A stretch of 64,000 nt of DNA from Candidatus Doudnabacteria bacterium (GCA_023246005.1 JAHFJG010000007.1:7312-71311); one strand, 5' to 3'. Positions 13,353-63,711 are shown, counted from the stretch's first letter. Translations and numbers: made by a program. Notes: generated by a model not told the origin, from the sequence alone.

Positions 13353-13363
13353 TTTGTTATCTG

Positions 13364-15225: not shown

Positions 15226-15260
15226 TCTACAACCTATAACCTACCACCTACAACCTTTTA
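15226..15260. repeat. right arm of the inverted repeat bracketing the 4HB gene 14790-15152
   Basis: TCTACAACCTATAACCTACCACCTACAACCTTTTA. It abuts the stop codon of the upstream gene. Confidence 0.6.
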
Positions 15261-16730
15261 TAGTCTTTCAATTTCCTTACGAAGGTCTGCGATTGCTTCA
15301 AATTCTTGCAGCGTCAAATCGCTGCCGGCTTTGTTCGCGGCATTTTTGAACACCACTGTTCTATCAGCATTATTATCATGAATCATGGCAGAGCCAATTT
15401 GCAGATAAATCTTAAACAATGGGCTTTGTTCAAAGGCATTAACGACATAATACGGCAACAGCCGGTTGGCTTGCGCCAGATAAATGATTCGAGATTGGAG
15501 ATTCGAGATTTGAGCTTGCAAAGTTCCCGCGCGCAGATAGCTTAAATCAACTTTTTTCAAATCATCAACGATTTGAATATCATTTAATGATTTCGAAGGA
15601 GTCAATTTGACTGAAGCGGGCCTGTAATAATTCTCCGGTGCGACTGAAGACGGCAGAAACTTTGTAGGTAAAGGAACGGGCTTTGAGATCCGCAATCCTG
15701 AATTCATTTCAGGATCTCTTTTTTGAGATACTGAAACCCCTGAACTTGATTCAGGGTCAGCATTGCGAGGCGGAGAAACCAATTCCGGAGTTTTCACTTC
15801 ACGCTTAATTTCTTCCGGCGTCATCTTCACAAGCGTTTGTTTGCTGCTATCTGATATCTGTTTACTGATCCCTGTTTCCCCCATTTGCCGCCGCAAAACT
15901 TCCAGGTCTTGGCCGTGAGAAGGAGTTGGTGGTCTGGGAGGAGTTCGTGGTCGTGGGGCAACTGGTATATTCTGATTTTTAACAACTTGCTGGAAATCTA
16001 CTGTTGCTTCTTCAAAGGCTGTTCCGTATTTGAGCCAATCATAAAGCTCTAGAATAATAAGCAACAACTTTCGATCGGTATTGGACAACTTCCGGACAGT
16101 TTGGTTCTGATTTATGTACGTAATCCTTTCTATAGCTCCTCTTGTTTCGAGTATAGGTCCTGCTTTTCTTGTGTTTCGATCATAATCCAATAACCAGTTG
16201 CCTATTGAGGGTGGGACATTTTTATCTGCTATTGTTAGGGGATTACTACCAACTGTAACAAAACTCCTAAGCATGATATTAGCCAATGACTCGGCAATCG
16301 CTCCTTCTTCTCTAACGTCATCATAAACATTTAAAACATCCTGAAACTTTTCTTGGATTGGTATTTTGGCCTTTATTGCATCTGTCAGATGGTTCTTGAT
16401 CAAATTTTCTATTTCTGCAAAGGGCCTTGAGGACAAACATTCAAATTTCAACAGGACTATCAATTTCTGATATTTTTCGTACAGCTCCGGGGACTCAGTT
16501 TTCAGTTCTGGGTATTTGCCAATCAATATGTCTTCCAAAAGCATCCGAGCTTTCAAGGCCTCTTCCCGGTTATCAAACTCAATGCTTCCTTCAACTATTT
16601 GCTTGAACTGCTCAAAAACCTCCGGATATGCTAACTGCTTTCTGTCCGTGATGAAAGACAATGGTGTTGTATTACCAACCACAGCGGAGTTAGATGTTGT
16701 GCTTTGCTGAATTAGAGTTTCGTCTGGCAT
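15258..16730 (-). CDS. hypothetical protein (490 aa, Pro-rich linker), T4SS-locus associated
   Basis: Intact ORF between the 4HB gene and the VirB6-like gene. PRPRTPPRPPTP linker. No recognisable catalytic motif. Confidence 0.3.
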   Translation of the reverse strand: MPDETLIQQSTTSNSAVVGNTTPLSFITDRKQLAYPEVFEQFKQIVEGSIEFDNREEALKARMLLEDILIGKYPELKTESPELYEKYQKLIVLLKFECLSSRPFAEIENLIKNHLTDAIKAKIPIQEKFQDVLNVYDDVREEGAIAESLANIMLRSFVTVGSNPLTIADKNVPPSIGNWLLDYDRNTRKAGPILETRGAIERITYINQNQTVRKLSNTDRKLLLIILELYDWLKYGTAFEEATVDFQQVVKNQNIPVAPRPRTPPRPPTPSHGQDLEVLRRQMGETGISKQISDSSKQTLVKMTPEEIKREVKTPELVSPPRNADPESSSGVSVSQKRDPEMNSGLRISKPVPLPTKFLPSSVAPENYYRPASVKLTPSKSLNDIQIVDDLKKVDLSYLRAGTLQAQISNLQSRIIYLAQANRLLPYYVVNAFEQSPLFKIYLQIGSAMIHDNNADRTVVFKNAANKAGSDLTLQEFEAIADLRKEIERL

Positions 16731-16736
16731 ATTTTT

Positions 16737-21575: not shown

Positions 21576-23339
21576 CTAAGGGTTGCAGCTATTGCTAAAA
21601 TAACACGCCGTGTCTGGATCGCCAGGGTTGGTTGCCGGACCTGCATATTTCACACTTGCTTCTGTGGATGGCGGGCCTCCCAGCCATTGCGGGTTGTTGG
21701 CTCCTCCACTATCGCCCAAAATATCCGCACCCGAATTATCCGGATACGCAACAATGTCAGTTGCCAACCCATCGCATTGACCGGAGTGCCAAGTGGTCAG
21801 CGCCCCTGCGCCTTCGCCGCGCAATACCCAGGCCACGCGTTTGGTAATTTCAAACGCGCCGCAGTTGCCGCTTAAGTTTACGCCTTCGTCAACCAGATAT
21901 TTTTTCACCTGCCTGACTACTTCCGTATGATCCGGCATAGTGCAGGCGATTGCGGTGGGAACATCAACGCAGGTTGGCCCGGTGCCCGGGGTTGGCGGCG
22001 GAGTAATGGTCATAGCCGTCTTAGAGCCCTGGCATGGAGGACCGGTGGTCACTGTTGTCGAGCCATCGGGATTGGTTACCGGAAGCCCGCCATAAATACA
22101 AATATCCGGCTGGCCGTCGCCGTTGGTGTCATAACCGTCAATGATGCCATCGCCGTCGATATCAATCCCATTACTGCCAGGGGTAAACTCCCCGTACGTG
22201 GCGTCTGGATTATATTGTCCATTATAATCCGGCAAAGCCTGGCCTGATTTATTATCTGAACTATCCAAGGTTAATTGATTGAAGATGAAATTGCCGAACA
22301 GGGAACCGATAATCGCCCAAAAATTATTGGGATTAAAATTAGCATCGAGCTTGGTTAAAATCGAACCGCTTAAATATTTATCAACTGTTGCCGTGGGATT
22401 GTCGATAAATGACCTGGCTGTATCCAGCGCGGACGCATTCCATTTGCCTCCGCCAGCGGCACAGCTGACCGGATCCCAAAACCCGTCGCCATTGGTTTTC
22501 CCCCAATCAACGTTATCGGTTTGGTTGCTGCAAAAGCCGCCAATCACGCGGCCGGCTTTCAAACCGTAACCAGCCGCGACTTCAAGCTGTGCCGCTGTGG
22601 TAGCAGATGATTGGAATGCCCCAAATTGTCCCTGCAAATTTTGTTCGGTAAAGCTCCGCGGATTGGCAAAATAGGCTTGAGACATGGCAAAATAATCCCG
22701 ATCCGACATATTGGCCGGCGGATAGTAGACTTTATTCGGGTCAATGCCGCCTTGTTTAATATAATAATCAGCCATGGCTTTTTTAAGCTGTGGGATCAAG
22801 GCCTTCCTTGGATCCGGCGCGTTGGGATCCTTGGGATTAGCGCCGGTGGGCTGGCCTGTGACGTAACCGCGATACATCATGGTGTAAATTCCGCGCAAAT
22901 CAGGATCAGAAATCTTATCCGCTAAAAACTGATACAAATAATAGTCAGACAGATACTTGTCATAATAGAGAAAGTTCCTAATCCGATATTTGTCTTGCAG
23001 CTTATTGGTTAATCTGGTTAAATATTTATTAGAGATATTTAAGGCAACCGCCCTTAAAGCTCCTAGCGCGAGGTCTTTGCCTATTTGATATAAATCGCCG
23101 ATTTTTATCACAAGATCGGGCAGCCCGGGAATTAAACCTGCTTCCGCAGGTTTTGGCAGAAATAAACCAATGGAGACAATGGCAAACTGGCTGATTATGA
23201 AAATCGTCAAAACTAATGCTGCTGATGATTTTACTAGTCTGCTATTTGGCATTTTGGTATTTATTTTGAAGCCGGTTGGTTTCCAAAGTAATTTTTTGGA
23301 ATAAGCTGAATGTTGCCTGCGTTTTATCATACCAGGCAT
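21576..23339 (-). CDS. secreted or membrane-anchored hypothetical protein with thrombospondin-type-3-like Ca-binding motifs; C-terminal half GC-rich
   Basis: TM or signal at MPNSRLVKSSAALVLTIFIISQFAIV. Motifs DIDGDGIIDGYDTNGDGQPD. Gly/Pro/Thr-rich C-terminus. Confidence 0.4.
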   Translation of the reverse strand: MPGMIKRRQHSAYSKKLLWKPTGFKINTKMPNSRLVKSSAALVLTIFIISQFAIVSIGLFLPKPAEAGLIPGLPDLVIKIGDLYQIGKDLALGALRAVALNISNKYLTRLTNKLQDKYRIRNFLYYDKYLSDYYLYQFLADKISDPDLRGIYTMMYRGYVTGQPTGANPKDPNAPDPRKALIPQLKKAMADYYIKQGGIDPNKVYYPPANMSDRDYFAMSQAYFANPRSFTEQNLQGQFGAFQSSATTAAQLEVAAGYGLKAGRVIGGFCSNQTDNVDWGKTNGDGFWDPVSCAAGGGKWNASALDTARSFIDNPTATVDKYLSGSILTKLDANFNPNNFWAIIGSLFGNFIFNQLTLDSSDNKSGQALPDYNGQYNPDATYGEFTPGSNGIDIDGDGIIDGYDTNGDGQPDICIYGGLPVTNPDGSTTVTTGPPCQGSKTAMTITPPPTPGTGPTCVDVPTAIACTMPDHTEVVRQVKKYLVDEGVNLSGNCGAFEITKRVAWVLRGEGAGALTTWHSGQCDGLATDIVAYPDNSGADILGDSGGANNPQWLGGPPSTEASVKYAGPATNPGDPDTACYFSNSCNP

Positions 23340-31027: not shown

Positions 31028-31602
31028 CAGATTGAAATTAAGAATAATTCGGATTTAATGTTTCGCTCTAAAATATACTCAATAAACTTATTGATGGTAT
31101 GATGATTAAGCTGATCAACATCCTTCGGGATTTTAAAACCTAAGATCTCAAGTAATTCTACACAGAAGGAGTCCAGTAATCTAAAATACTGTTCCGAGTA
31201 ATTCTGACGGTCAAGGTTATAAAAAAAATCTGTCAATAAATTATAAGCCTCCGGATTCGGATGTTCGTCTGCTGTCATCTTCAGCATCAATTCTGCGGCA
31301 TAAAACGCAATCGCGGTTTTTTTAAGGTCTGTACGCAAGCTATTGAATTGCCGTACAGGCTTGGCTCCAATCAATGTTGGCAAATGCTTGCCAGCCAGAT
31401 ACAGTTCAACTTGGGCCAAATCCTGACACGCGTAATTAAGCTTGCTGGCCGGCTTGCGCAATGATTTGGCTAAAATGCGGACTTTGCCAGCTTCTTGGGT
31501 CCAGCAGCTAACTATTTGATCGGCTTCCCTGTAGTTTTGTTTCTTGAGGATTATGCCTGTGAGTTTTTTGTATTTCATCGTAAAATTTCTAACGGGATTC
31601 AT
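31027..31602 (-). CDS. recO: DNA repair protein RecO-like
   Basis: N-terminal OB-fold region KLTGIILKKQNYREADQIVSCWTQEAGKVRILAKSLRKPASKL. Length and context fit. Start overlaps the ileS stop. Confidence 0.55.
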   Translation of the reverse strand: MNPVRNFTMKYKKLTGIILKKQNYREADQIVSCWTQEAGKVRILAKSLRKPASKLNYACQDLAQVELYLAGKHLPTLIGAKPVRQFNSLRTDLKKTAIAFYAAELMLKMTADEHPNPEAYNLLTDFFYNLDRQNYSEQYFRLLDSFCVELLEILGFKIPKDVDQLNHHTINKFIEYILERNIKSELFLISI

Positions 31603-34600
31603 TATTTCTTTAAAGCAATGGTCACTTTTTTGTCGCCGATCATAATCTCTTCCCCGCCACTTAACCCCGTTTCTCCATTTATTCCCTTTATGTACGTCTT
31701 TTTTGTATCAAACAGTTCAAATGCAGCTCTTAATTCCGCGTCATCTGTATCATACGATAAATTGACCGATTCGCCAACCTTAAGTCCCGATTTTTTGCGC
31801 ATCTCTTGCACTGCTCGTTCCAGCTCGCGAGCCAGGCCTTCTTTTTTCAACTCTGGAGTAATTTCTAAATCAAATTCAAGCTTGTCCCCCAACTTAACTG
31901 CCTTAACATTCAACTCATCAGCTAAAATTTCCTCAAATTCTTTTGCTAATTTTTCTTTAGCATTATAAACAACTGACGCCAGTGGCTGTCGCAATTTTAG
32001 ATTCGAGGACTTTCTCAACGCATGACCTTGCTCGACGAGATTTCTGACTAACCGCATTTGATCCAAAACTGTTTTTTGTTCCTTGCTCAATTCTTTCTTT
32101 TCTGGCCAAGAAGCTAAATGGACTGATACCGTTTCTGTCTTATGATTCAAATTCAGGTAAATCATTTCCGACATATAAGGCATAACTGGCGCAGAGACTT
32201 TAGACAAAACCAAAAGTGCGTGCCGCAGAGTTCCAAAAAAATGGCTGTCTTTGCGGCCTCTGCTTCTTCGCAAATACCATGTTGAAAGTTCATTGATGTA
32301 ATCTTCTATCGCTCTTGTGGCTTTAACCGTGTTATACCCGTCAAGCTGATCGGTTACCTCGTTTACCAATTTTTGTATCTTAGCAACAATCCATAAATCC
32401 AAAACATTCGTTAAGTCAGGCTTGTATCCGGCCGGTTTCGGTTCCCATCCGGCTTCGTTGGCGTATGTTACGAAGTAGTTAAAGATGTTCCAAAGAATCA
32501 AAATATTTTTGCGATAAACAATTCCTAATTCTCTTTCGTTGAAATCTAAATTCTCGGCTTGCATTACTGGCGAGCTCATCAAATAGAATCTCAACGCATC
32601 AATTCCGTACTTTTCAATCACTTCCCACGGATCCGGATAATTATTTTTTGACTTGCTCATCTTGGAACCATCTTCAGCCTGAATCGTACCTGTCGTCACG
32701 ACATTTTCAAACGGCGCTTTGCCGAACAAATTGTAAGACACCACGTGCATGACATAAAACCATGCTCTGGTTTGCGCTATGTATTCGGCCACAAACTGCG
32801 CAGGAAAACGGCTTTCAAACACCTCTTTCTGGTCAAACGGATAGTGATACTCGGCAAACGGCATGCTGCCAGCCTCGACCCAAGAATCAAAGATTTCGCT
32901 GATTCTATGGGCATCTTTGCCGCATTGCTTGCACTTAATCACAATTTCATCAATGTACGGCCGGTGCAAATCAACAATGCTGACGTCCATTTCATAGGCT
33001 TCGCCGAGTTTTGGGTATTCCAGTTCTGACCCAAAATATTTCTGCAAAATAAACAATGGGTCGCCGTGGCCGACAACTAAAATCTTTTTTCCTTCATATT
33101 TTTGATTGATTTCTTGCACAAATTCAAGCATGCGCTTTTGCACATCCAGATTACTCTCCCCACCATCTGGTCCTTTTTCCCATCGGGCTTCAAACGGAAA
33201 TGCTTTCCAAAGTTCGTCGTAACTTTTGCCGTTGTAAACGCCGGTATTAAATTCGTGTAGACGGGCATCAAACTGCACTTCGACTGCCAATGCTTGGCCA
33301 ATCAACTCGGCCGTTTCTTTGGTGCGAGTGATGTCAGAAGCAAAAATTAAATCAATTCCTGCTTGTTTCAATCTACTACTTGCAGCTTCGGCTTCTTTTG
33401 TTCCCGTCGCGGTCAAAGAATACTTCTTTTTTCTCTCCGGAAAACAATCATTGATTCCAAGGATGTTGTTCTCGGCTTCGCCATGGCGAGCAAAATAAAA
33501 AGTATTTCGACTCAAACCTAATTCCTTGATCGAACCAACCACAGTGACGTGTCCATCTTCACATTTCCAAACCGGAATTGGATTACCCCAATAACGGTTG
33601 CGGGAAATGTTCCAGTCGGGCGCGGCTTCGACTGACTTTTGGTAGCGGCCGTGTTTGAGGTGGTCTGGAAACCAATTGATTTCTTTTTCATTAGTTTTCA
33701 GAAGTCCTGGCTTGATTTTTTGAATATTCATAAACCATGCGGGAATCGCATTGTAATAAAGTGTCGTGCCGCAGCGCCAACAATGCGGATAAGAATGTTT
33801 GTGCTGTTGCTTGGCAAACAATAATCCCCTGCTTTCCAAATCTTTCTTAATGACTTTTTCTGAATCTTTAAAATACATCCCGCGGATCAACTCTGGAGCC
33901 TTGTCATTGAACTTCCCTTTTTCATCAAGCAAAGGAACCACGGGCAAACCAACTTTTAAGCCCAAATTATAGTCATCTTCGCCATAAACTACGGCAGCAT
34001 GAACAATTCCTGTGCCCTCTTCTGTGTTCACAAAATCAGCAGCGTAAACTTTAAAAGATTTGTCAGTTATAACATCAGGAACTTCAAATAACGGCTCGTA
34101 TTCTAAGCCGACCAAATCCTTGCCTTTTAACTTCTCAAGCACCTCAAAACCATCGCGAGCCTGCGAAGCAGGCGTGGCGATCTTGTCTTGGATTGCCGCG
34201 TCGCCGCCATGACTTATACTTTGAGAAAAGCGGCTCCTCGCAATGGTTTCTGCAAGCCTTTCTTTTGCCAAAATATAAAACTCGTCACCAACTTTCACTT
34301 TCACATAATCAATATCTTCACCAACCGCTAGCGCCACATTGCCCGGTAAAGTCCAGGGCGTTGTTGTCCAGGCCAATAGATAAGTATTGGCGAATTGCGG
34401 ATTACGAATTGCGAATTTCACTGTCACGGTTTCTTCGGTCACTTCCTGATAACTGTTGTCCATAGCCACTTCAAAGTTGCTGATCGGCGTTTCGCACCGC
34501 GGGCAGTACAATAGCACACGCCGGCCTTCGTAAACCAATCCTTTATCGTAAATTTGTTTGAACGCCCACCAGACCGATTCCATATAGTCGCGGTCCATGG

Positions 34601-35057
34601 TTTTGTAAGAATTATCAAAATCAACCCAGCGGGCAATTCGCCGCACGGTTTTCTTCCACTCCGTGACATACTCCAAAACCATGCTCCGACAAGTTTCATT
34701 AAATTTTTTTATTCCCAGTTTTTCAATGTCTTTTTTGCCGGAAATTCCAAGTTTGCGCTCCACAATTTCTTCAATCGGCAGACCATGACAATCCCAGCCC
34801 CATCTGCGCCGGACAAACCGGCCTTTCATAGTCTGATAGCGCGGAAATAAATCTTTGACTGTGGAGCCTAAAATGTGTCCGTAGTGCGGCGTGCCGGTGG
34901 CAAACGGCGGGCCATCATAAAAAGTGTACGGTTTGCCGTTTTTGGTTTGCTCCAAAGATTTGTGAAAAATCTGATTATCTTCCCAAAACTTCAAAACCTC
35001 TTCCTCAAGCTTTGGAAAATCTGGCTTAGGATCGATTGGTTTGAATGTATTGCTCAT
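31602..35057 (-). CDS. ileS: isoleucyl-tRNA synthetase with an inserted histidine-phosphatase (PGAM-like) domain
   Basis: HIGH motif PHYGHIL and KMSKS motif KMSKSKNNY. Also WNISRNRYWGNPIPVW and a zinc-finger CxxC. About 170 extra residues (aa about 518-690) carry RHGEAENN and VVGHGDP motifs. Confidence 0.9.
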   Translation of the reverse strand: MSNTFKPIDPKPDFPKLEEEVLKFWEDNQIFHKSLEQTKNGKPYTFYDGPPFATGTPHYGHILGSTVKDLFPRYQTMKGRFVRRRWGWDCHGLPIEEIVERKLGISGKKDIEKLGIKKFNETCRSMVLEYVTEWKKTVRRIARWVDFDNSYKTMDRDYMESVWWAFKQIYDKGLVYEGRRVLLYCPRCETPISNFEVAMDNSYQEVTEETVTVKFAIRNPQFANTYLLAWTTTPWTLPGNVALAVGEDIDYVKVKVGDEFYILAKERLAETIARSRFSQSISHGGDAAIQDKIATPASQARDGFEVLEKLKGKDLVGLEYEPLFEVPDVITDKSFKVYAADFVNTEEGTGIVHAAVVYGEDDYNLGLKVGLPVVPLLDEKGKFNDKAPELIRGMYFKDSEKVIKKDLESRGLLFAKQQHKHSYPHCWRCGTTLYYNAIPAWFMNIQKIKPGLLKTNEKEINWFPDHLKHGRYQKSVEAAPDWNISRNRYWGNPIPVWKCEDGHVTVVGSIKELGLSRNTFYFARHGEAENNILGINDCFPERKKKYSLTATGTKEAEAASSRLKQAGIDLIFASDITRTKETAELIGQALAVEVQFDARLHEFNTGVYNGKSYDELWKAFPFEARWEKGPDGGESNLDVQKRMLEFVQEINQKYEGKKILVVGHGDPLFILQKYFGSELEYPKLGEAYEMDVSIVDLHRPYIDEIVIKCKQCGKDAHRISEIFDSWVEAGSMPFAEYHYPFDQKEVFESRFPAQFVAEYIAQTRAWFYVMHVVSYNLFGKAPFENVVTTGTIQAEDGSKMSKSKNNYPDPWEVIEKYGIDALRFYLMSSPVMQAENLDFNERELGIVYRKNILILWNIFNYFVTYANEAGWEPKPAGYKPDLTNVLDLWIVAKIQKLVNEVTDQLDGYNTVKATRAIEDYINELSTWYLRRSRGRKDSHFFGTLRHALLVLSKVSAPVMPYMSEMIYLNLNHKTETVSVHLASWPEKKELSKEQKTVLDQMRLVRNLVEQGHALRKSSNLKLRQPLASVVYNAKEKLAKEFEEILADELNVKAVKLGDKLEFDLEITPELKKEGLARELERAVQEMRKKSGLKVGESVNLSYDTDDAELRAAFELFDTKKTYIKGINGETGLSGGEEIMIGDKKVTIALKK

Positions 35058-36009: not shown

Positions 36010-36795
36010 TCACCACGCAGCTTTCAGAGCTTGTCTGGCCGCTTCTACCGCTTGCCTAAAGGCTTGATTCGCAGCTTGGATCGCCTGGTCGCGGGTCTTA
36101 GCCAACTGGATCAGGGTTCCATCCGGCAAAGCAATCACGACTTGGCGGAAGGCCTCATTGGCTTTTCGAATACCGTTATACATTGTTTGCCTGGCAGTTA
36201 CTGGAGCAACCTTGTTGGCGCAATCGGTTTTGGCTTGAGCAATGGCTGCATTGACTGCGTTCTGGAACGCTGTTGCGGCATTTTTAACTTTATTTTCGCG
36301 GTCAGTGATCGTTTGCTGGGCCGCTGTCTGGTAAGCGCTCACTGCGGCATCCACGGCTTGTTTGCGAGTGGCTTGCGCCGCCAGCACTGCGACTTTGAAA
36401 GCCGCAATCGCGGCTTTCTGCGCGTCAGTCGTAGCTTTCGAACCGAGCGAATTTATATGATCTGCAAACTTCGTTCTGGCTGCATCGCGCAAACTTTGCA
36501 CTTCCGCTGCCCGCTTGGTTTTGCGATCCGACAAATTTTGCAGCATGGTCGTTCTGATCTTGCCGCGATTGTCTGCCAATTTGGTCAGCAAATTGTTCAA
36601 CTGGCTGGAAGTGTCGTTGATCTTCGTGCAGAAATTGTTCGTGGGCATTCGACCTTGGGAAGTTGAACTGTTCCCGCCAGTAGTAGTATTCGTAGCCAAA
36701 GATACGAACGGACTAATCATTAAACCAATTGTCGCCGCGCTAACGGCTAATTTTTTAATAGTTTGCATTGGAAACTTCGTTTGAATCATTGACAA
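36010..36795 (-). CDS. secreted alpha-helical/coiled-coil hypothetical protein
   Basis: Signal peptide KKLAVSAATIGLMISPFVSLA. Ala/Gln-rich helical repeats. Confidence 0.35.
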   Translation of the reverse strand: MSMIQTKFPMQTIKKLAVSAATIGLMISPFVSLATNTTTGGNSSTSQGRMPTNNFCTKINDTSSQLNNLLTKLADNRGKIRTTMLQNLSDRKTKRAAEVQSLRDAARTKFADHINSLGSKATTDAQKAAIAAFKVAVLAAQATRKQAVDAAVSAYQTAAQQTITDRENKVKNAATAFQNAVNAAIAQAKTDCANKVAPVTARQTMYNGIRKANEAFRQVVIALPDGTLIQLAKTRDQAIQAANQAFRQAVEAARQALKAAW

Positions 36796-39159: not shown

Positions 39160-39609
39160 ATGCCAACCTATGCTTCCAACCGCAAAGCTTTTCATGATTA
39201 CTCAATCGAAGACACAGTTGAGGCCGGTTTGGTTTTGGAAGGCCACGAAGTCAAAAGCGCCAAGACTGGCCAAGCTACACTCACGGGCGCTTACGTCACA
39301 ATTCGGGCCGGAGAAGCCTATCTTCGCAATGCCTATATTGGCCGCTATAAACAATCAGCTGGCCTGGAAACCCATGATGAAATACGCGAACGAAAACTCT
39401 TGCTCCATAAAAATGAAATTATCCGCTTGCAAAACAAAACCAAGGATAAAGGCCTAACCTTGATTCCTCTGGAACTCTACTCTCATAAAGGTTTAATCAA
39501 ATTGAAAATCGGCGTGGCCAAAGGCAAAAAACAATTCGACAAAAGAGAATCAATCAAGAAAAAAGAATTAAAACGAAAAATCGATCGTACCATTAGAACT
39601 AAAATTTAA
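39160..39609 (+). CDS. smpB: SsrA-binding protein SmpB
   Basis: KAFHDYSIEDTVEAGLVLEGHEVKS...LLLHKNEI...ELYSHKGLIKLKIGVAKGKK, typical SmpB. Basic C-terminal tail. Confidence 0.9.
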   Translation: MPTYASNRKAFHDYSIEDTVEAGLVLEGHEVKSAKTGQATLTGAYVTIRAGEAYLRNAYIGRYKQSAGLETHDEIRERKLLLHKNEIIRLQNKTKDKGLTLIPLELYSHKGLIKLKIGVAKGKKQFDKRESIKKKELKRKIDRTIRTKI

Positions 39610-39649
39610 AAACCGCCCATCATTATAGGGCGGTTTATTAGTTTTTTCT

Positions 39650-42600
39650 TTAATAATCAGTCGATCGATAGCCGGATAATACAGAGCTGTCCACAACTTT
39701 TATCTGGCTAAACTTATAGCCTTGAGTGATGAAATCTTCCATGGATCTAAACGGTCTAATTTCAACGCTCCTAACCACTACATAAACCGTATTGTTGTCA
39801 GCAGTCTTAAGCAATGTCCCGCTAGGATACCTGCTGATTGACACGCCTTTAATCCGAGGGCCAACAGGCGCCCCAATAGGCACTGCCAGGTCAGCCAGGT
39901 TAGCGGAAACTATCTGTCTGAACTTATTGCCCCAAGAAAAGAAAATGCTTGAGGATGGAAAAGCGTATCGGTAGCTGCGACCCATGAAATAGATTGTCCC
40001 GTTGTCATTAACTAACGTGCCTCTGGGATGTCTATGGACAATGTCTGTGACGTCAGAGCCTTGGGCAATGCTGGATATATCTGCATCTATGATATTGGAG
40101 AGTTTGTAGCCGAGACCATAGAAGACACCCATGGAACTAAAAGCTCGCTTCAGTCCATTTTCAATCACATAGATCACGCCATTATCCTTAACCAAGGATC
40201 CATCATCATATTTGGTTGTTGGAGCTGGATTAGGCGTGGGTGTGGGAGTAGGAATCGGTGTTGGCGGTGGTGGAGGTGGTGTGGGTGTCGGTGTTGGAGT
40301 GGGCGTCGGAGTAGGAGTAGGAGTCGGAGTCGGAGTCGTGGTAATGGTCAGAAAATCTTCTGCGGACCAGCCGTCCACGCCGGAATCGTAATTGATCTGC
40401 CACCAGTTGTATCCTCCCGAAGCGATAGAACCGGCAATAACCGTTCCCAAGGCGCCCGTCGGCTGCGTCCCCAAAAGTGTCCCGGTCATGGATGCCGTAG
40501 CGCGGACATTAAGAGGCCCGGAGGAAACCTGCACGCGATTGCTGATGGTGAATTTTGTGGAAGGAGTAGGTGTCGGCGGAGTATTAACTGTCACCGTCAC
40601 GGACTGACTCGTGCTCCCTCCTGCACCGGAACAGGTCAGCGTGTAGGTCGTCGTCGCCGTGGGGAACGCCGTCGAATTTCCGAAGACTGCTTGTGTTCCC
40701 GCCCATCCGCCCGAAGCGGTACACGCCGTCGCGTTCGTTGATGACCATCCGAGCGTCACGGATGCGCCCGCGGTTATGGCGTTGCTCGAAATCGAGAACG
40801 ATAAAGTGGGAACTGGTGTAGGAGTAGGAGTAGGAGATATTGTCCAACATGCGGTCATTGGCGCATCAAGATTCAGATTCTTTTTAATAGAGCTGAATCG
40901 CATACTGTTCATGACAGGACAGAAAGTCGCGGTGTTCCCGGAATATTCGGCGTTGAACACGGCCTTACCCGCATTAATGAAAGGCACAAGCGTACTGCAT
41001 TCGTTGTACTGGTTACACTGCTCATCAAGAGCCCAATCGAAATCACCAACCAGGCTCGTGACCTGACCGACGTCATTTTTGAGTCCGATGGACAACCCTT
41101 TACCGTGCGCCGTCGTGGCGAGGAAGCGATTATAAGTGATCTGGTCATTTGCGGTCAGAGGAAATCCGGTGCTGTTCGAGTAGCCATCGATATTATCGGG
41201 CTCTATGGCATCGCAACCTTTCTGCACTGCAAGGTCCATCCGCGCGTTCATGATCGGGCCCAGGATGCTCGTCTGGCGAATGTCCAGCCAATTTTCGCCC
41301 GGCCAACCGTTGCCATTGCCTTTGACCGACGCAGGGAAGCTTGCCGCGTCAGTGCGCCAGTTCTCGTAGGTTCCGGCGCTGATATAACAGATGACCTTCC
41401 TGCCTGCCGCATGGAGCGAAGTAATGGTTGTTGCGGAGTTGTCGAAAAGATCGATGTCGTAGGCCTGCGCGTTGAAACTCTGATCAACGGTCCCCGTAAG
41501 TTGCCACTGCCAAGTCGTCATCGGAGCGGGGTACCAAATATTTGCGGCGGGTGTTGGAGTCGGTGTTGGAGTCGGTGCGGGCGTCGTCGTCTTTACGAGA
41601 TAATCTTCTGCGGACCACCCGTCCACGCCGGAATCGTAATTGATCTGCCACCAGTTATATCCTCCCGAAGCGATAGGGCCGGCAACGACCGTTCCTAGGG
41701 CGCCCGTCGGCTGCGTTCCCAAAAGCGTTCCAGTCGTGGATGCCGTAGCGCGGACATTAAGAGGTCCGGAGGAAACCTGTACGCGGTCACCGATAACGAA
41801 TTTTATGGAAGGAGTAGGTGTCGGCGTTGGGGTTGGGGTTGGCGTTGGCGTGTTGCTATACAAATTAGCAGGCATAGCATTGCCGGCAGCTTCCCAGATG
41901 TACTGGGTCAACGAGGGCGAAGAGCAGAAACCCCGGGTGACGCCGGCATCCGTGCACATTTCTTTTTTAATCCTAGCTTCATTCGGCCAGCTCCAGAGCG
42001 GATTCGAAGTCAACGTATTGAATCCCGCATCACCCCAAAAAGTCCCGTCTTGCCCGTAAGCGTACATCACGTTTGCCCCATAATCCGCTCCCCCGTTCCC
42101 CGTACCCTTGAGTGACGATCCATTTTCTATCCGGGTAATGTATTTAAGCGAACCATCCGTTAAAGGATTCGTAGTTTTACAACCCACGCTGCAGGTGGCG
42201 TCACCATAAGCGGGCGTAACATTATTATCTATATAAGTTGGAGTAACCGCTCCGAAATAGCCATAGCGTCCGGATCCCGCAGCAATGAGGTTTTTCGCCG
42301 AAGAGCTACCGGCATAGTGGACATTGATAACATCTCCATTATTATTAGAAGAACTCTTATACGCCGTCAGATTCTGAAGGACCGCCTGTTGGTCGGTGCA
42401 ACCCTGGCACTGGGAGTTAAAGCCGGTCCCCCGGGGGTTCCATGCGACGTCATCCTTATAGATCGCAGCTGGATTAGTAACTCCCGAGGTATTGTCGGTA
42501 TCGGTGGTAAACGCGCTGTATTGGCTGTTAAGCGAAATACTGCCTAGCCATTCGTTGCCGCCAAAAGGATGAGTTCCGGCATTCGTGTGCCACGCCGTCC

Positions 42601-43537
42601 AAAAATCCGCGCCGCCGCCGAATCCCGCGGGCCCCAGAATATTGTCCAAAGCCATAACGTTTTGCAGCGAGGCCTGACTGGTGTTATAGATGGTGGTCGC
42701 GCTCATGTAATTGCCGGAGTTGCTCCCGCAATAATCTGCGGAGGAGTTGCAACCGTCGTTTCTTAAAATGACTCGGCGCAGAACGATATGGTCCGCATTG
42801 AGTGGAGCAAATGCCTTGCGATCGTTGCCCCAAAGCCAACTATCTTCGAGTGTGATATAAGAAGAAACAAGATTTCCATTATTATCGTTTGTGCCGATAT
42901 TGAAGACCCCGTTACCTCCGCTATTGTCCGTCACCCCTATGTTTTTGAAAAAGAGGTGGTCGCCATGATAGATGCCGACGGCGTGAGCAATTTTAAAACC
43001 TTGAAATTTAATGAACTTCTTCGTGATAGGGATCGTGCCAAGCTGGATCGTATCGATAGTCACTGCGCCATCGTTCAATGCGATGATTTTCGTCATGGCG
43101 CCGACGGCCGTACCATCTTGCGGCACACCGGAAGGCGCACCCGAATTCTGATTGATCGCACCGTTCACGGCCGAGGTATACGCTCCATCCATTAAGTACA
43201 ACGTGCCGCTGGCAGGCAGAGCCGAGAACGCCTTGGCAAACGTCTTGAAAGAAGTAGATTGAGAAGCGCCGTTATTCGAATCAGAGCCAGTCGGGGAAAT
43301 ATAATAGATTGACCCGGTGCCGGCCGCGCTGGCCACGTTTGGAGTTAAAATAACATCGGCGCCAGAAATTTGATTAAACAAAACCGTGCCAACTAATAAA
43401 GAGATGAAAATAAAAATAACCCAGTGAAAGAGAGGATATGTCTTGTGCATATGCCATTTGGAATAGCCTTTGTATTTTTGTTCCAGCATCTCGTGCAATT
43501 TTTGCATATTCTGTTTTGCTTGGTAAGCAATCTTCAA
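39650..43537 (-). CDS. giant secreted multidomain surface protein: beta-helix region, two SH3b domains, GH114-like glycoside hydrolase domain, Pro-Thr linkers, C-terminal tandem ~60-aa repeats
   Basis: N-terminal TM or signal. GH114-like YDIDLFD...VICYISAGTYENWR. Duplicated SH3b module. (PT)n linkers. C-terminal repeats TVYVIENGLKRAF...GYKLS. The central 3 kb is GC-rich. Confidence 0.55.
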   Translation of the reverse strand: MKIAYQAKQNMQKLHEMLEQKYKGYSKWHMHKTYPLFHWVIFIFISLLVGTVLFNQISGADVILTPNVASAAGTGSIYYISPTGSDSNNGASQSTSFKTFAKAFSALPASGTLYLMDGAYTSAVNGAINQNSGAPSGVPQDGTAVGAMTKIIALNDGAVTIDTIQLGTIPITKKFIKFQGFKIAHAVGIYHGDHLFFKNIGVTDNSGGNGVFNIGTNDNNGNLVSSYITLEDSWLWGNDRKAFAPLNADHIVLRRVILRNDGCNSSADYCGSNSGNYMSATTIYNTSQASLQNVMALDNILGPAGFGGGADFWTAWHTNAGTHPFGGNEWLGSISLNSQYSAFTTDTDNTSGVTNPAAIYKDDVAWNPRGTGFNSQCQGCTDQQAVLQNLTAYKSSSNNNGDVINVHYAGSSSAKNLIAAGSGRYGYFGAVTPTYIDNNVTPAYGDATCSVGCKTTNPLTDGSLKYITRIENGSSLKGTGNGGADYGANVMYAYGQDGTFWGDAGFNTLTSNPLWSWPNEARIKKEMCTDAGVTRGFCSSPSLTQYIWEAAGNAMPANLYSNTPTPTPTPTPTPTPSIKFVIGDRVQVSSGPLNVRATASTTGTLLGTQPTGALGTVVAGPIASGGYNWWQINYDSGVDGWSAEDYLVKTTTPAPTPTPTPTPAANIWYPAPMTTWQWQLTGTVDQSFNAQAYDIDLFDNSATTITSLHAAGRKVICYISAGTYENWRTDAASFPASVKGNGNGWPGENWLDIRQTSILGPIMNARMDLAVQKGCDAIEPDNIDGYSNSTGFPLTANDQITYNRFLATTAHGKGLSIGLKNDVGQVTSLVGDFDWALDEQCNQYNECSTLVPFINAGKAVFNAEYSGNTATFCPVMNSMRFSSIKKNLNLDAPMTACWTISPTPTPTPVPTLSFSISSNAITAGASVTLGWSSTNATACTASGGWAGTQAVFGNSTAFPTATTTYTLTCSGAGGSTSQSVTVTVNTPPTPTPSTKFTISNRVQVSSGPLNVRATASMTGTLLGTQPTGALGTVIAGSIASGGYNWWQINYDSGVDGWSAEDFLTITTTPTPTPTPTPTPTPTPTPTPPPPPPTPIPTPTPTPNPAPTTKYDDGSLVKDNGVIYVIENGLKRAFSSMGVFYGLGYKLSNIIDADISSIAQGSDVTDIVHRHPRGTLVNDNGTIYFMGRSYRYAFPSSSIFFSWGNKFRQIVSANLADLAVPIGAPVGPRIKGVSISRYPSGTLLKTADNNTVYVVVRSVEIRPFRSMEDFITQGYKFSQIKVVDSSVLSGYRSTDY

Positions 43538-43597
43538 AAGCTTCCAAAAAATAAAGCTTAAAGAAGCCCCAATAATTGCTCTATTTAATTGTTTTTT

Positions 43598-43645
43598 CCG
43601 CCAGAGGCGCCTGCCTGCCCGACCGACAGGGATCCGCCCGATTTG
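43598..43645. repeat. R1 mini-element copy (long variant) just upstream of the giant surface-protein gene
   Basis: Minus strand GGCGGATCCCTGTCGGTCGGGCAGGCAGGCGCCTCTGGCGGAAAAAAC. It encodes GGSLSVGQAGASGGK followed by a stop codon. Confidence 0.55.
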
Positions 43646-43936
43646 GTTTTGAATTGTGGCAAAGTTTTACCTTTTGTTTCTGTAGAGTTATTTACTCTAT
43701 ATAATATATGATAGCATATATTTTAGAATATTGCAACAAAATAAAATACGGGATTTTAACTCTCAATACCCTAAACCTTTACATTTAAGCAAAAATCTGA
43801 TAAGCTATGTTTCGTCGCAGTTGGTCGACACTTCGTGATCCCGCAATAAGTAGGATGCGCTACGGTCGACATAGCTGTTCCTCTCAAATTGAAATACAAT
43901 AGCTGATTCTTATCGGCATTTCAATTTGTAAAAATT

Positions 43937-44319
43937 GGGGCTGTTTAGATTCGACAAAAGTTCTTTGATAAATACTGCAAGTCCGATTAGCCTAATTTCT
44001 CGGTTAAAAAAATAAGGCAAATCATAAATGCCAATTCTTTGGTAAGCAAGATTAAGAACGCTTTTGCGTTCTCTCCTGCTTTGGCAGTCGCTTAAACAGT
44101 TACTGCCCATCTGTCCTGCAAAGTCTGTGCGCAGATCACAGGTGTTATATTATCGGACTTACTTTAGTTGACGCCTGACAGCTAAAGGACACTTAAGGCT
44201 GACCTTAAGGCGCTTTGGTCTGCTTCTATGTCTTAAGGGAAATTTTAAAGCAGTCTAAGCTTGTAGAAGTATTTGTTAAAATCTTTTGGACGGGAGTGCA
44301 AATCTCCCCAGCTCCACCA
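43937..44319 (+). ncRNA. ssrA: tmRNA (ssrA)
   Basis: 5' end GGGGCTGTTTAGATTCGAC. 3' end has T-arm GGGAG-TGCAAAT-CTCCC, acceptor CAGCTCC, then ACCA. G3-U70 pair. Candidate tag reading frame ends ...AFAFSPALAVA*. Confidence 0.7.
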
Positions 44320-51153: not shown

Positions 51154-51649
51154 TGTTGTTTCCTCTCTTTTATCAAATTGACCTATCTATTATACCACAA
51201 GGTTTAAAAAACATAATAACCAGGTGAGAGAGCCTGGTTATTATGTGTATTGAAAGACAGTATTTGTGAGGAAAGCTACTATTTTGGTAACCCCTCACCA
51301 CTGACCTTCAATTTGGTATTCCCTGTCCAGAACAAATCTTCGGTGGTTAAGCCTAATGATTGTGTTCCAGGCCGGAAATAAGCGAATTTAAAAGGTGCGA
51401 TCTTTGAGTTTCTTGAATTTCTGTTTTTGTTTCAAACTAGGCGAACAAACCTAAACCATCCTTCATATGTTAGGATCGTTTAGTTTGCTTAGCGCCCGAT
51501 TTGGAAAACCATATTGTTATTTTGTCTTGATTTCTACTTGAGTATTTTTTATACTATAAATAGTATAGCAAATTTTTCGGTTCTTGTAAAGAGCGATTTG
51601 ACAATAATTAGCCATAAGAATACAATTTATTTACTTTAACAATTATTAA

Positions 51650-51775
51650 TTGACAGTTCCATTAAGGTCGGTTGGGGAAGTGGGCGTAAATCCCACACTG
51701 TGCCGCAACTGTAATTGTTACGTGTTACATGATAAATGTTACGTGACTTAAGTCAGAGTACCAACCAACTGTCAA
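51650..51775 (+). promoter_or_regulatory. candidate cobalamin (AdoCbl-type, short variant) riboswitch aptamer
   Basis: P1 TTGACAGTT/AACTGTCAA encloses GGGGAAG..GGGCGTAAATCCCAC..CTGTGCCGCAACTGTAA (compare consensus AGGGAA..GGTGnAAnTCC..CCCGCnACTGT.A) and a B12-box-like AAGTCAGAGTACCAACC. Confidence 0.45.
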
Positions 51776-51790
51776 ACTACAAATATGACA

Positions 51791-51819
51791 CCTCTTCGAG
51801 CAAAGAGGAGCGCTTTTTT
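51791..51819 (+). terminator. terminator-like hairpin (CCTCTTcgagcaAAGAGG...TTTTTT) forming a putative expression platform; a second hairpin at 51832-51856 could sequester a GGAGG
   Basis: Hairpin plus T6 between the aptamer and the ATG at 51874. Confidence 0.4.
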
Positions 51820-51873
51820 AAATCATAAAAGGCCGCTTCCTTCTTGGAGGCGGTCTTATTTAGAAAGGCGTAT

Positions 51874-53487
51874 ATGAGAAGACTCGTTGTCTTACTCAGT
51901 TTTGGCGCGATTCTGTTCGGCCCCTTGACGGTGTTTGCTAGTTACAACCAAACATCTGCAGAAAGTTATTTAACGGCGCATGCGAGTAATCCCTGGAGTA
52001 CCATGGCCCTGGCCATGCTCAATTCCAGTTCTATCCCATCAGATTATCTCAAAACGATTAATGGGACAACTGCCATCGAATATGCAGCTCCCATCCTTGC
52101 CATCACAGCCTTGGGTCAGGACCCGCGAACTTTTGGCGATAAAGATCTTATCGCAGAACTAGAAAAATTTCACACAAGTAATCAAATCGGCGATACAGCT
52201 ACAATTAATGATGATATCTTCGGCCTGTTCGCCTTGCTCTCTGCAGGAGTTCCGAACAATGATCCAACAATTATAGATGCTGAAAATTTTATCCTCGCGC
52301 ACCAGCAAGCCAATGGCGGCTGGGGCTTTGCTACCAGCGGCGGTACTGACAGCAATATGACCTCTGCGGCAATTGTCGCACTCATCGCGGACGGAGTTTT
52401 GGCAACAGATACTAAAATTCAAAACGCCTTAGATTATCTGAAGACTGCGCAAAATGCCGACGGCGGGTTTACCTATGACCCGCAAAGTCAATTTGGAACA
52501 GATTCGGATTCTTCTTCCACTGCCTGGGTCCTCTGGGCGCTTAATGCCGCAAAAATTAATCCTGACGACTGGACCAAACCTAACGGCTCCCCGACTTCGT
52601 ATTTGGAATCTAACCAAGTTGCAACTGGTTTCTTCAAATATCAAAGCATTTCCACTGAAGATTCTTTTTCAGCGACAACCACAGCTTATGCCGTGATGGC
52701 GCTAAACGGAAAAACTCTGCCTCTCAATATCTTTACTGCTCCAATTCCGACTTTTACACTGACCTATATTGCGGGGCCAAACGGCAGTCTAACGGGATCG
52801 GCTTCCCAAACAGTAAGTTTGGGTGCTGATGGGACAGCGGTCACTGCGGTAGCCGTAGACGGCTTTCATTTCAGTAATTGGAGCGATGGCGTGCTTGCTG
52901 CTGCCCGCACTGACACGAATGTCTCAACAAATATCTCTGCCACGGCAAACTTTGTAGTTGACCTTAAAGGCGGAGGCGGATGGGGCGGAGGGGGAATCTT
53001 CTGCTTAGACTGCAGCACTTTTGTGCCAAGCACAACTGTAACTTCAGCCCCAACTCCGAACCCAACCCCACCAAGCCATATTCCTATACCAACAAATCCG
53101 CCTGGGCAGGTTTTGGGAACGACCGCTTTCGCTTCGGGCACTTTAGTCAAAACAACAAATGATGCCACTGTCTATATCGTAGAAAACGAGAAATACCGAC
53201 CGTTTAGCAATGAGCTGACATTCCTTACCCGCGGGTTAAGATTTTCGGATGTTCAAATTATTGATTCTAATCTCATAAGCACAAATAACTTTGGAAAGAT
53301 TATGGGCTTTGCTGACGGCATTTTGATCAAAGGAAGTTCAGCAACAGTGTACATGATTTTAAAAAACACCAAACTCGGCTTTGTATCCATGGGCGTTTTA
53401 TCGCGGATGAAATTGTCTTTAGACAACGTTGTCGAAATCAGCGATGCAGATTTGGCTAGTTATGACGATGGCGAGATAATGCAATAA
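51874..53487 (+). CDS. secreted alpha/alpha-toroid protein (prenyltransferase/squalene-cyclase-type repeats) with C-terminal ~60-aa surface repeats; candidate extracellular cobalamin-binding protein
   Basis: Signal peptide MRRLVVLLSFGAILFGPLTVFA. Repeats HQQANGGWGF and AQNADGGFTY. C-terminal modules TVYIVENEKYRPF...GLRFSDV are homologous to the C-terminus of 39650-43537. Confidence 0.45.
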   Translation: MRRLVVLLSFGAILFGPLTVFASYNQTSAESYLTAHASNPWSTMALAMLNSSSIPSDYLKTINGTTAIEYAAPILAITALGQDPRTFGDKDLIAELEKFHTSNQIGDTATINDDIFGLFALLSAGVPNNDPTIIDAENFILAHQQANGGWGFATSGGTDSNMTSAAIVALIADGVLATDTKIQNALDYLKTAQNADGGFTYDPQSQFGTDSDSSSTAWVLWALNAAKINPDDWTKPNGSPTSYLESNQVATGFFKYQSISTEDSFSATTTAYAVMALNGKTLPLNIFTAPIPTFTLTYIAGPNGSLTGSASQTVSLGADGTAVTAVAVDGFHFSNWSDGVLAAARTDTNVSTNISATANFVVDLKGGGGWGGGGIFCLDCSTFVPSTTVTSAPTPNPTPPSHIPIPTNPPGQVLGTTAFASGTLVKTTNDATVYIVENEKYRPFSNELTFLTRGLRFSDVQIIDSNLISTNNFGKIMGFADGILIKGSSATVYMILKNTKLGFVSMGVLSRMKLSLDNVVEISDADLASYDDGEIMQ

Positions 53488-62256: not shown

Positions 62257-63711
62257 TTGACTAAAGATGAAATAAATGCTAAGTTATTAAGTCAAGGATG
62301 GCTTTTGCCTCTTTGCGATCTTGAACAATCAGCAGGAGGCAAAAGCATACGAAATTACAGCGTTGAGTCTGTTTTTCCAGGAGGGAGTTCCATCATGAAA
62401 AAGCAGTACGTTTCAGACCTCCATCAGAGACTCGACGTTGACCAAAACGTCGTTCTCTACGGATGGGTTAAGGCCAGGCGGATACATGGACGCATCGTCT
62501 TTATCGATGTCGTCGATTCGACTGGAACTATACAGGCGGTGTTTGAGAAAGGTCAGTGTCCCGATGTCGTGTTCGTAATGGCCAAAGGCTTAACTCTTGA
62601 GTCGAGCGTTAAGGTACAAGGTCAGCTGCGGGCTCGGGGGATACAACGCGAGATCGTGGCGTGTTGTCTCGATGTAATCAGCCAAGCCAGTATCGCAGTT
62701 GATCCTCATGTCCGCGATCCCATCGACATCTTCGACCCCGCGATTCAGGAACAGCTTTTAGGCCATCGTCATTTCTATCTTCGCAATGAGAAGGTAATGG
62801 CGATCCTCAAGTTCCGTCACTTGCTGATGGGTTTGGTTCATCAGTGGTTCCGAAGTCAGGGCTATACCGAGATCACGGCTCCAGTTCTGACTGCAGTTCC
62901 ACTCTACGACGATCGCTCCGCTATCGGGCTGACAGTCGACAACCAGTCAATCTTCCTCACACAGTGCGTTGGCTTCTACCTAGAATGGGCCGTGCACGCC
63001 TTTGAGAAGGTCTACAACATCGGCCCGAGTTTCCGGGGAGAAGAAAGTCGCAGCAAGCGTCACCTTATGGAGTATTGGCACATCAAGGCCGAGATGGCAT
63101 TTGCGGATCTGGAGGACGTTATCGCTACGGTCGAAAGCCTGATCAGTTTCGTTTCGGTGGCCTGCCACGAACAAGGGGGCGACCTGGCGAAAACATTAGG
63201 CCGATCGATTTGCCGCGACGGCGTCAGCACTCCATACCCGCGGATCACTTACGCGGAAGCGGTCGAAAGCCTCAAGCGCGATGGTGTCGATTTTCAGTTC
63301 GGCAAAAGCCTCGGCTCTGACGAGGAAGAACTGCTCTCCAGGCAATTCAAACAGCCCTTCTGGATCGTCGGTGTTCCGCGCACGATCGAACCGTTTCCGT
63401 ATGTTGTCGATCCGAACGACCCGCGCGTCACGCGCACAGCCGATCTGATCGCGACCAACGGTTATGGCGAACTGCTCGGCGTTGCTGAAAAAATTCAGGA
63501 TCTCTCGATGCTGGACGAACGGCTCGCTGAGAAGGGCAAGCTTGGCAATCCGCTCTATGAATGGATGCGTGACCTCCGGAAGTTCGGCTGCGTTCCCCAT
63601 GTCGGTTTCGGCTTGGGGGTCGAACGTTTTATCCGGTGGCTGATCGACATCCCGCACGTCCGCGATACCATTCCTTTCCCGAGAACTTTTCGGCGAAAGA
63701 TTTTCCCTTAG
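62257..63711 (+). CDS. class IIb aminoacyl-tRNA synthetase, AsnRS-like (GC-rich, likely horizontally acquired)
   Basis: N-terminal OB anticodon-binding fold. Motif 2 FRGEESRSKRHLMEYWHIKAEMAF. Motif 3 GFGLGVERFIRWL...RDTIPFPRT closely resembles the AsnRS C-terminus. GC about 57%. Confidence 0.7.
   Translation: MTKDEINAKLLSQGWLLPLCDLEQSAGGKSIRNYSVESVFPGGSSIMKKQYVSDLHQRLDVDQNVVLYGWVKARRIHGRIVFIDVVDSTGTIQAVFEKGQCPDVVFVMAKGLTLESSVKVQGQLRARGIQREIVACCLDVISQASIAVDPHVRDPIDIFDPAIQEQLLGHRHFYLRNEKVMAILKFRHLLMGLVHQWFRSQGYTEITAPVLTAVPLYDDRSAIGLTVDNQSIFLTQCVGFYLEWAVHAFEKVYNIGPSFRGEESRSKRHLMEYWHIKAEMAFADLEDVIATVESLISFVSVACHEQGGDLAKTLGRSICRDGVSTPYPRITYAEAVESLKRDGVDFQFGKSLGSDEEELLSRQFKQPFWIVGVPRTIEPFPYVVDPNDPRVTRTADLIATNGYGELLGVAEKIQDLSMLDERLAEKGKLGNPLYEWMRDLRKFGCVPHVGFGLGVERFIRWLIDIPHVRDTIPFPRTFRRKIFP

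Follow-up and report, generated by a model that had tools for sequence, protein, structure and literature searches.

Ega3 of Aspergillus fumigatus (PDB 6OJ1/6OJB) is a single-domain, extracellular, envelope-tethered enzyme of glycoside hydrolase family 114 (GH114) encoded in the galactosaminogalactan (GAG) biosynthetic cluster, and its Asp189 and Glu247 are the experimentally verified nucleophile and acid/base (PMC12054363). Characterized GH114, GH135, and GH166 enzymes are encoded within biosynthetic clusters, and bacterial GH114 enzymes, although numerous, are described as biochemically elusive and are reported to have resisted soluble expression (PMC12054363). A homologous catalytic domain with the conserved Asp/Glu pair is encoded by a giant gene at positions 39650–43537 of a 64,000-nucleotide (nt) stretch of DNA from Candidatus Doudnabacteria bacterium (GCA_023246005.1 JAHFJG010000007.1:7312-71311), the whole of which is referred to here as the window. 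Like Ega3, the giant protein appears to be extracellular and envelope-tethered, the tether being putative in this case; unlike Ega3, it is bacterial, its catalytic domain is fused to a beta-helix domain, two SH3b modules, and a putative wall-anchor repeat, and its gene lies between smpB and ssrA. We consider it probable, with moderate confidence, that this protein is a secreted two-enzyme depolymerase of extracellular polysaccharide, tethered to the cell wall and assembled from acquired modules.

The terminal domains also have described counterparts. The N-terminal domain shares a right-handed parallel beta-helix and an N-terminal cap motif with Pel9A (a PL9 pectate lyase; 1RU4) and with PL6 lyases (chondroitinase B and alginate lyases), but identity is only ~17%, the sequence match covers approximately the first third, and the domain reaches no Pfam beta-helix model. 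The C-terminal repeats resemble R1–R4 of EccB, a type VII secretion core component with weakly PlyCB-like repeats, in that both consist of tandem units of ~55–60 amino acids (aa) with a small beta-sheet-plus-helix fold and belong to the cell envelope. In contrast to those of EccB, to which they have no detectable sequence similarity, they are terminal on many unrelated secreted enzymes, do not belong to a secretion apparatus, and surround no central core domain. Like SH3b, LysM, PG_binding_1, CWB2, and SLH wall-binding modules, they are tandem terminal repeats joined by linkers to peptidoglycan hydrolases and surface enzymes; they belong to a different sequence family, however, with the wall as putative ligand. 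The enzymatic parts of the protein are ordinary, and the most interesting part is this uncurated, EccB-like, probably wall-binding repeat family.

Gene Layout and Product Architecture

The initial annotation described a single giant gene, and 39650–43537 is indeed one unbroken open reading frame (ORF) on the minus strand, with a TTG start at 43537 and a product of 1,295 aa. A separate gene call begins at an ATG at 43507 and yields a 1,285-aa product (39650–43507, minus strand); this ATG is the likely start, and residue numbers throughout refer to the 1,295-aa frame (TTG start). That gene call was made on ENA assembly ERZ27297570, where a 4.5-kb contig encodes exactly this 1,285-aa product. From the N- to the C-terminus, the product comprises a signal or anchor helix, a 490-aa beta-helix, an SH3b module, the GH114 domain, an Ig-like spacer, a second SH3b module, a Pro/Thr stalk, and three ~60-aa repeats. 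The combination of a beta-helix, GH114, and two SH3b modules had been proposed from the DNA alone, and it is upheld by Pfam, AlphaFold2 (AF2), and Foldseek. The features of the gene, with the evidence for each, are as follows:

39650–43507, minus strand: coding sequence of the multidomain protein (ORF and independent gene call)
43328–43507, minus strand: N-terminal export signal (hydropathy, sequence, and composition)
41855–43327, minus strand: right-handed parallel beta-helix, putative polysaccharide lyase or hydrolase, aa 71–561 (AF2, Foldseek, and homologues)
41810–41854 and 41546–41590, minus strand: Pro/Thr linkers beside SH3b copy 1 (translation)
41591–41809, minus strand: SH3b copy 1, aa 577–649 (Pfam SH3_3, DNA repeat, and alignment)
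40841–41545, minus strand: GH114 endo-alpha-1,4-polygalactosaminidase domain, aa 665–899 (Pfam PF03537 and Ega3 alignment)
40580–40804, minus strand: Ig-like spacer of ~75 aa, aa 912–986 (sequence pattern only)
40343–40561, minus strand: SH3b copy 2, paralogue of copy 1, aa 993–1065 (Pfam SH3_3, DNA repeat, and alignment)
40217–40342, minus strand: Pro/Thr/Pro-rich stalk of 42 aa, aa 1066–1107 (translation and linker repeat family)
39653–40216, minus strand: three tandem ~60-aa C-terminal repeats, R1 at 40043–40213, R2 at 39860–40033, and R3 at 39674–39832 (hmmsearch, AF2, and Foldseek)

The export signal consists of a Lys/His-rich N-region followed by a hydrophobic helix (aa 36–54, LFHWVIFIFISLLVGTVLF), after which there is a putative signal-peptidase site with cleavage predicted, from the sequence, between VASA and AG. 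The full architecture appears so far to be without a second example, as identity in the word-index protein database reaches no more than 68% for the beta-helix and 53% for the repeat region.

GH114 Catalytic Domain

The identity of the GH114 domain is, at the level of sequence, certain. Pfam PF03537 matches aa 675–892 across model positions 1–229 of 231 (E = 1.5e-85; score 286.5 bits, cutoff 27), and phmmer matches the domain to Ega3 (6oj1) with E = 1.1e-58. Asp189 and Glu247 of Ega3 align, at a constant offset of 41, to Asp781 (in EPDNIDGY) and Glu839 (in LDEQC), which are therefore the predicted catalytic residues. The initial annotation had suggested a galactosaminogalactan-type substrate; given the Ega3 match and the conserved Asp/Glu pair, a polymer of galactosamine (GalN) or N-acetylgalactosamine (GalNAc) is a reasonable candidate.

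The nearest genomic relatives of the domain (75% identity) are found in metagenome-assembled genomes (MAGs) of Terriglobia, Patescibacteria, and Elusimicrobiales, and relatives on metagenome contigs reach 77–78%. Fusions of GH114 and beta-helix domains also occur, in the opposite domain order, in Terriglobia and Elusimicrobiales proteins (L002; L004 = L025), and this recurrent pairing in other lineages suggests that both modules act together. The Patescibacteria relative (L003, 4905–5891) is a 328-aa secreted GH114 enzyme, the end of which resembles, by eye, a dockerin-like repeat pair; the same catalytic module would then be tethered by different means. No account of GH114 in Patescibacteria was found in the literature.

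Beta-Helix Partner Domain

The AF2 model of the beta-helix domain, computed from a 62-sequence alignment, is an all-beta coil with a predicted local distance difference test (pLDDT) of 95.2 and a predicted template modeling (pTM) score of 0.94. In a Foldseek search of the PDB, the best match to the model is Pel9A (1ru4; E = 1.7e-8), followed by GH136 lacto-N-biosidases, a PL9 rhamnogalacturonan lyase, AlgE epimerases, and PL6 lyases, so that all top matches are carbohydrate enzymes with a right-handed beta-helix. The fold of the modeled domain is accordingly regarded as established.

By sequence, the family profile of the domain matches 1ru4 among the PDB sequences with E = 1e-15, in the N-terminal third only, the match ending at position 168 of the profile. 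With the match to lyases limited to this third, the domain may be either a lyase or a hydrolase. The domain itself has zero Pfam matches, even at E ≤ 10, and is not placed among PL9/Pel9A-like sequences by PF22842 or related models above threshold. Its homologues graze the Pfam models for Pel9A-like proteins, chondroitinase B, and DUF1565, near or below the cutoff and by the N-terminal cap only. The domain has 86 homologues in all, the best of them 68% identical to it; most are secreted on their own as proteins of ~520 aa, and they come from a range of bacteria. Residues E160/D161, R183/R184, N222, and D227 (domain numbering, in which residue 1 is aa 71) are invariant in the family and, from this conservation, are candidates only for catalytic and Ca2+-binding residues.

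Two close stand-alone homologues adjoin either a glycosyltransferase gene and an asparagine-synthase (AsnB) gene, or a UDP-N-acetylglucosamine 2-epimerase gene, a setting usual for genes of polysaccharide-processing enzymes. The closest homologue of all (P0004; 528 aa, stand-alone, the 68% match) is encoded on a 5.9-kb contig of ERZ27297570, which shares its metagenome sample with the organism of the window, with an asparagine-synthase gene and a GT4 glycosyltransferase gene as neighbors.

These neighborhoods, together with the biosynthetic clusters in which the characterized GH114, GH135, and GH166 enzymes reside (PMC12054363), would be expected if the giant protein processed the organism's own exopolysaccharide during synthesis or dispersal, in the manner of Ega3, Sph3, and PelA. 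We judge this role to be distinctly unlikely here. The neighbors of the gene are argS, smpB, ssrA, infC-rpmI-rplT, and map, which argues against a biosynthetic role; no synthase, deacetylase, or glycosyltransferase gene lies near it in the window, and the region between signal and anchor is foreign in composition (see below).

SH3b Modules, Spacer, and Linkers

Pfam SH3_3 (PF08239) is matched by two stretches of the protein (score 37.1 bits, cutoff 27). The corresponding DNA is a duplication unit of 285 nt, linkers included (40294–40578 and 41542–41826), with 85% identity between copies; the SH3b cores (40352–40561 and 41600–41809) are 88.6% identical over 210 nt, near the approximately 90% first estimated. 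The cores differ at 24 of 210 positions, and no stretch of perfect identity exceeds 38 nt. Of the 70 codons, 51 match exactly, 11 show synonymous changes, and 8 show non-synonymous changes; the copies are 86% identical as protein, with a non-synonymous divergence (dN) of 0.06 and a synonymous divergence (dS) of 0.35, which indicates purifying selection on both copies and a duplication that is not very recent. The initial annotation had called the intragenic duplication recent; the duplication itself stands, but its recency was overstated, given dS of ~0.35 and the presence of copies with 70–79% identity in unrelated metagenomic proteins.

Those proteins (L021 and L028–L035) are Pro/Thr-linked giants of 950 to >2,500 aa that carry the same SH3b subfamily two to three times each. 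They resemble the giant protein of the window in their linkers and in combining several carbohydrate-active modules, and their partner modules include polysaccharide-lyase, beta-helix, CEMIP/G8, GH127-like, LamG, and PG_binding_1 domains. L021 (1024–5328) encodes a 1,434-aa protein with the order fn3, SH3b, GH114, SH3b, and LamG, so that the SH3b-GH114-SH3b cassette is not unique to the window. These proteins differ from ours in their terminal modules (LamG, PG_binding_1, polysaccharide lyase, or CEMIP/G8), and the C-terminal repeat is absent from those that were fetched. Identity between SH3b copies within one protein is 82–86% in several of them, compared with 86% here. The high similarity points to a strongly conserved and often re-used module, copies of which may be kept alike inside proteins by duplication or gene conversion.

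The repetition of linker DNA that had been noted from the sequence is extensive: the Pro/Thr-linker codons form a DNA repeat family of 15 copies at five sites. The Ig-like spacer has a weak Pfam match to Ig_ADGRF3 (E = 0.03), and a domain homologous to it follows an SH3b module in L033 and L034 (phmmer E = 3.8e-16).

The GC content of the gene changes in sharp steps, and the region is fragmented in other assemblies of the same organism; both observations would fit an assembly chimera, or an SH3b duplication created by assembly. Such an origin is nevertheless highly improbable. The single unbroken ORF spans both composition boundaries, and the identical 1,285-aa product on the ERZ27297570 contig comes with both flanks. 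A second sample also contains the junction between smpB and the 3′ end of the gene, over 1,404 nt with two differences, and a paralogue of the 3′ repeat lies 12 kb off within the window. Since the longest run shared by the SH3b copies is 38 nt and a separate assembly gave the identical product, the duplication is taken as real and not an assembly artefact.

C-Terminal Repeats and Their Second Carrier

The C-terminal ~60-aa repeats are, as the initial annotation stated, common to a second protein of the window, with three copies in the giant protein and two in the other. The best repeat pair between the two proteins is 39% identical (BLASTP E = 3e-12), and hmmsearch found the repeats in none of the other window ORFs. 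The second protein and its upstream element comprise:

51844–53487, plus strand: ORF of the second repeat-bearing protein, given as 51874–53487 in the initial annotation
53128–53484, plus strand: two C-terminal repeat copies of this protein, at 53128–53304 and 53308–53484 (BLASTP and hmmsearch)
51649–51818, plus strand: adenosylcobalamin (AdoCbl) riboswitch-like element, directly preceding the 51844/51874 ORF (Rfam RF01482)

No Pfam-A or NCBIfam model matches the repeats, and their sole family-model trace is a sub-threshold DUF6799 match in two relatives. With Pfam and NCBIfam silent on the C-terminus, SLH, CWB2, LysM, and choline-binding repeats, as well as an LPXTG-type sortase signal, were rejected as identities for it. 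The literature yielded no description of the repeat. A word-index homology search retrieved only three to four proteins, whereas an exhaustive HMMER search of 1.84 billion representatives (clusters at 50% identity) with a 12-repeat profile recovered 5,558 proteins at E ≤ 0.001, of which 2,957 also pass E ≤ 1e-10. Among the best 148 members, most often there are four copies per protein (84 proteins); the array stands at the C-terminus in 94 of them and at the N-terminus in 27. In a Pfam scan of 79 members, the most frequent partner domains were SpoIID (7), Peptidase_M23 (3), polysaccharide deacetylase (Polysacc_deac_1; 3), Amidase_2 (2), and Glucosaminidase (2), with proteases, CAP, and Ig/fn3 spacers as further partners. 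Such a preference for partners that act on peptidoglycan is typical of wall-binding modules.

The AF2 model of the repeats (21-sequence alignment; pLDDT 91.7) shows each unit as a small beta-sheet with short helices. In Foldseek against the PDB, the top eleven matches are all mycobacterial EccB1, EccB3, or EccB5 (E = 2.8e-6 to 7e-4; probability 0.85–1.0), and the next match has E = 0.37. By sequence, the repeats have no match to PF05108, and a profile search of PDB sequences found no EccB chain at E ≤ 10. EccB1 contains four ~55-aa repeat domains with a weak resemblance to PlyCB, a phage protein that binds the cell wall, and peptidoglycan binding by EccB has been proposed without demonstration (PMC4769845). 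The EccB-repeat-like fold of the model and, by analogy, the fusions to peptidoglycan hydrolases lead us to infer that the repeats bind the cell wall as a putative anchor, and they lend support to the surface-anchoring role first attributed to them.

Phage proteins carry the repeat as well, namely the unannotated phrog_9616 and uncharacterized proteins of Rhodococcus and Streptomyces phages (PHROGs and BFVD); searching the viral collections with a single member of the repeat family gave zero matches. Lysin and amidase matches were weak (E above 0.03), and the phage matches were not taken to support a role as a lysin wall-binding domain.

The second carrier has a canonical signal peptide, an alpha-toroid domain resembling prenyltransferases and squalene cyclases, and an InlB B-repeat; its nearest NCBIfam family is SCO2321, below the cutoff. 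The element upstream had been described as a riboswitch regulating this protein. A cobalamin match is present over the full model length and includes the AAGUCAG core, but its score of 44.7 bits (E = 8e-7) lies below the gathering score of 50, and it is unreported at the gathering threshold. The protein is a candidate surface corrinoid-capture protein. Since a nutrient-capture protein would need to stay on its producer, self-anchoring by the shared repeat is tentatively favored.

This bears on the possibility, raised in the initial annotation, that the giant protein is a host-interaction factor of an episymbiont, which would clear the Pel- or GAG-type matrix of a host for attachment or feeding, the SH3b modules and repeats binding the host wall. 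Such a role, which we regard as unlikely, shares its biochemistry with the depolymerase proposed here. In its favor, one of the closest GH114 relatives is the Patescibacteria protein of L003; there are no metabolic genes among the window genes scanned, and the products encoded in the window include LysM-M23 wall enzymes together with a VirB4/TraG-like ATPase; and even the conserved window proteins cluster as one to three sequences at 90% identity. However, GH114 relatives from Terriglobia and Elusimicrobiales are equally close, and the occurrence of the same anchor on the putative B12-related protein argues for the producer's own surface.

We propose, as a plausible but tentative generalization, that the repeat defines a very large, uncurated cell-wall-binding family (5,558 or more clusters at 50% identity, actinophages included) that is kin to the EccB repeats, and that it serves this lineage as a common anchor, both for enzyme cassettes gained by horizontal transfer and for a cobalamin-capture protein under riboswitch control.

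Composition and Origin of the Modules

The center of the gene had been described as GC-rich, at about 58%. It is elevated, but 58% is too high: 53.1% was measured over 40001–43000 (500-nt maximum 59%), compared with 41.3% in the rest of the window. The GC content at third codon positions (GC3) varies by segment as follows:

Signal region: 0.44
Beta-helix: 0.57
SH3b copies: 0.58 and 0.64
GH114: 0.63
Ig-like segment: 0.67
C-terminal repeats: 0.47

The signal region and the C-terminal repeats thus have a GC3 typical of the window. The passenger block between them (aa 71–1065) has a GC3 of 0.587, compared with a mean of 0.397 (standard deviation 0.076) in the other 47 window ORFs (z = 2.5). In other genomes that carry close relatives of the GH114 domain, its GC content matches the surroundings; here it does not. 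The composition contrast and the cross-phylum GH114 identity of 75% point to imported or shuffled modules, and suggest that the passenger region was inserted, as acquired or shuffled modules, into a scaffold of which the signal and the anchor are native.

Apart from the giant gene, the window has one strong composition outlier, a 484-aa ORF resembling class II aminoacyl-tRNA synthetases (62257–63711, plus strand; GC 0.53, GC3 0.60), which may be another acquired gene. Two further ORFs, both on the minus strand, are GC-elevated, encode secreted proteins, and have zero Pfam matches: one product is 587 aa long and rich in Gly/Cys/Pro (21576–23339), and the other, of 261 aa, has a signal peptide, is rich in Ala/Gln, and appears to form a coiled coil (36010–36795).

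Proposed Function

The wall-tethered two-enzyme depolymerase would operate in the following way. The protein would be exported through its Sec-type N-terminal signal or anchor. To judge from the similarity to Ega3, the GH114 domain would hydrolyze alpha-1,4-linked, galactosamine-rich matrix polymers of the Pel or GAG type, which are cationic polymers of GalN/GalNAc, and the beta-helix module, modeled as PL9/PL6/GH136-like, may cut the same or an accompanying polymer. The two SH3b modules and the Ig-like spacer would serve in binding and spacing, with the Pro/Thr linkers providing reach. The three EccB-repeat-like units would retain the enzyme on the cell wall of its producer, leaving it displayed at the surface, and the same anchor would be used by the neighboring protein associated with the cobalamin riboswitch-like element. 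The passenger region (aa 71–1065) would have been acquired, or built from mobile modules, and grafted between the native signal and the native anchor.

Several points weigh against this proposal. The beta-helix family is without a characterized member and its lyase-like match is confined to the N-terminal third, so that the domain, a putative lyase or hydrolase, could be non-catalytic. The repeats are linked to EccB by structure and by none of the sequence methods, and peptidoglycan binding by EccB is itself only a proposal; moreover, the repeats could bind a target surface instead of the producer's own wall. Lastly, the composition contrast is moderate at z = 2.5, and ORF 62257–63711 also reaches a GC3 of 0.60.

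Genomic Setting and Other Window Features

The giant gene sits exactly between smpB and the gene for transfer-messenger RNA (tmRNA), in the opposite orientation to both (39160–44319). The features at its two edges are:

39610–39636, no strand assigned: GC-rich hairpin AAACCGCCC...GGGCGGTTT, between the giant gene and the convergent smpB (sequence and folding)
43937–44319, strand opposite to the giant gene: tmRNA gene (ssrA), 400 nt upstream of the giant gene

The hairpin, with a folding energy of −15.4 kcal/mol (z = −4.1), is a probable bidirectional terminator common to smpB and the giant gene. In ERZ27297570, the segment from ~39569 to 44076 forms the separate 4.5-kb contig. A strain-variable island was considered from the contig breaks that flank the gene and rejected, as fragments of 1–5 kb occur throughout those assemblies and the breaks are uninformative.

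Elsewhere in the window, an isoleucyl-tRNA synthetase gene (31602–35057, minus strand) encodes a histidine-phosphatase insert (His_Phos_1; aa 521–683, E = 1.1e-33) in the middle of the catalytic domain. A gene for a VirB4/TraG-like P-loop ATPase (9995–11881, minus strand) is followed, up to 19640, by a run of small ORFs and two large ORFs (490 and 967 aa) without Pfam match; the region 9995–19640 may represent a cluster for type IV secretion or a conjugation-like process.

Biological Implications

A modular, surface-displayed GH114 enzyme with a beta-helix partner suggests which enzymes co-act on biofilm matrices of the Pel or GAG type. The contrast between the native ends of the protein and its foreign middle would illustrate how a small genome equips a conserved anchor with imported catalytic modules. 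Identification of the ligand of the repeats would annotate thousands of surface proteins and would bear on the wall attachment of type VII secretion; if the repeats are indeed a wall-binding family related to EccB, they would provide the first comparative support for the binding of peptidoglycan by EccB.

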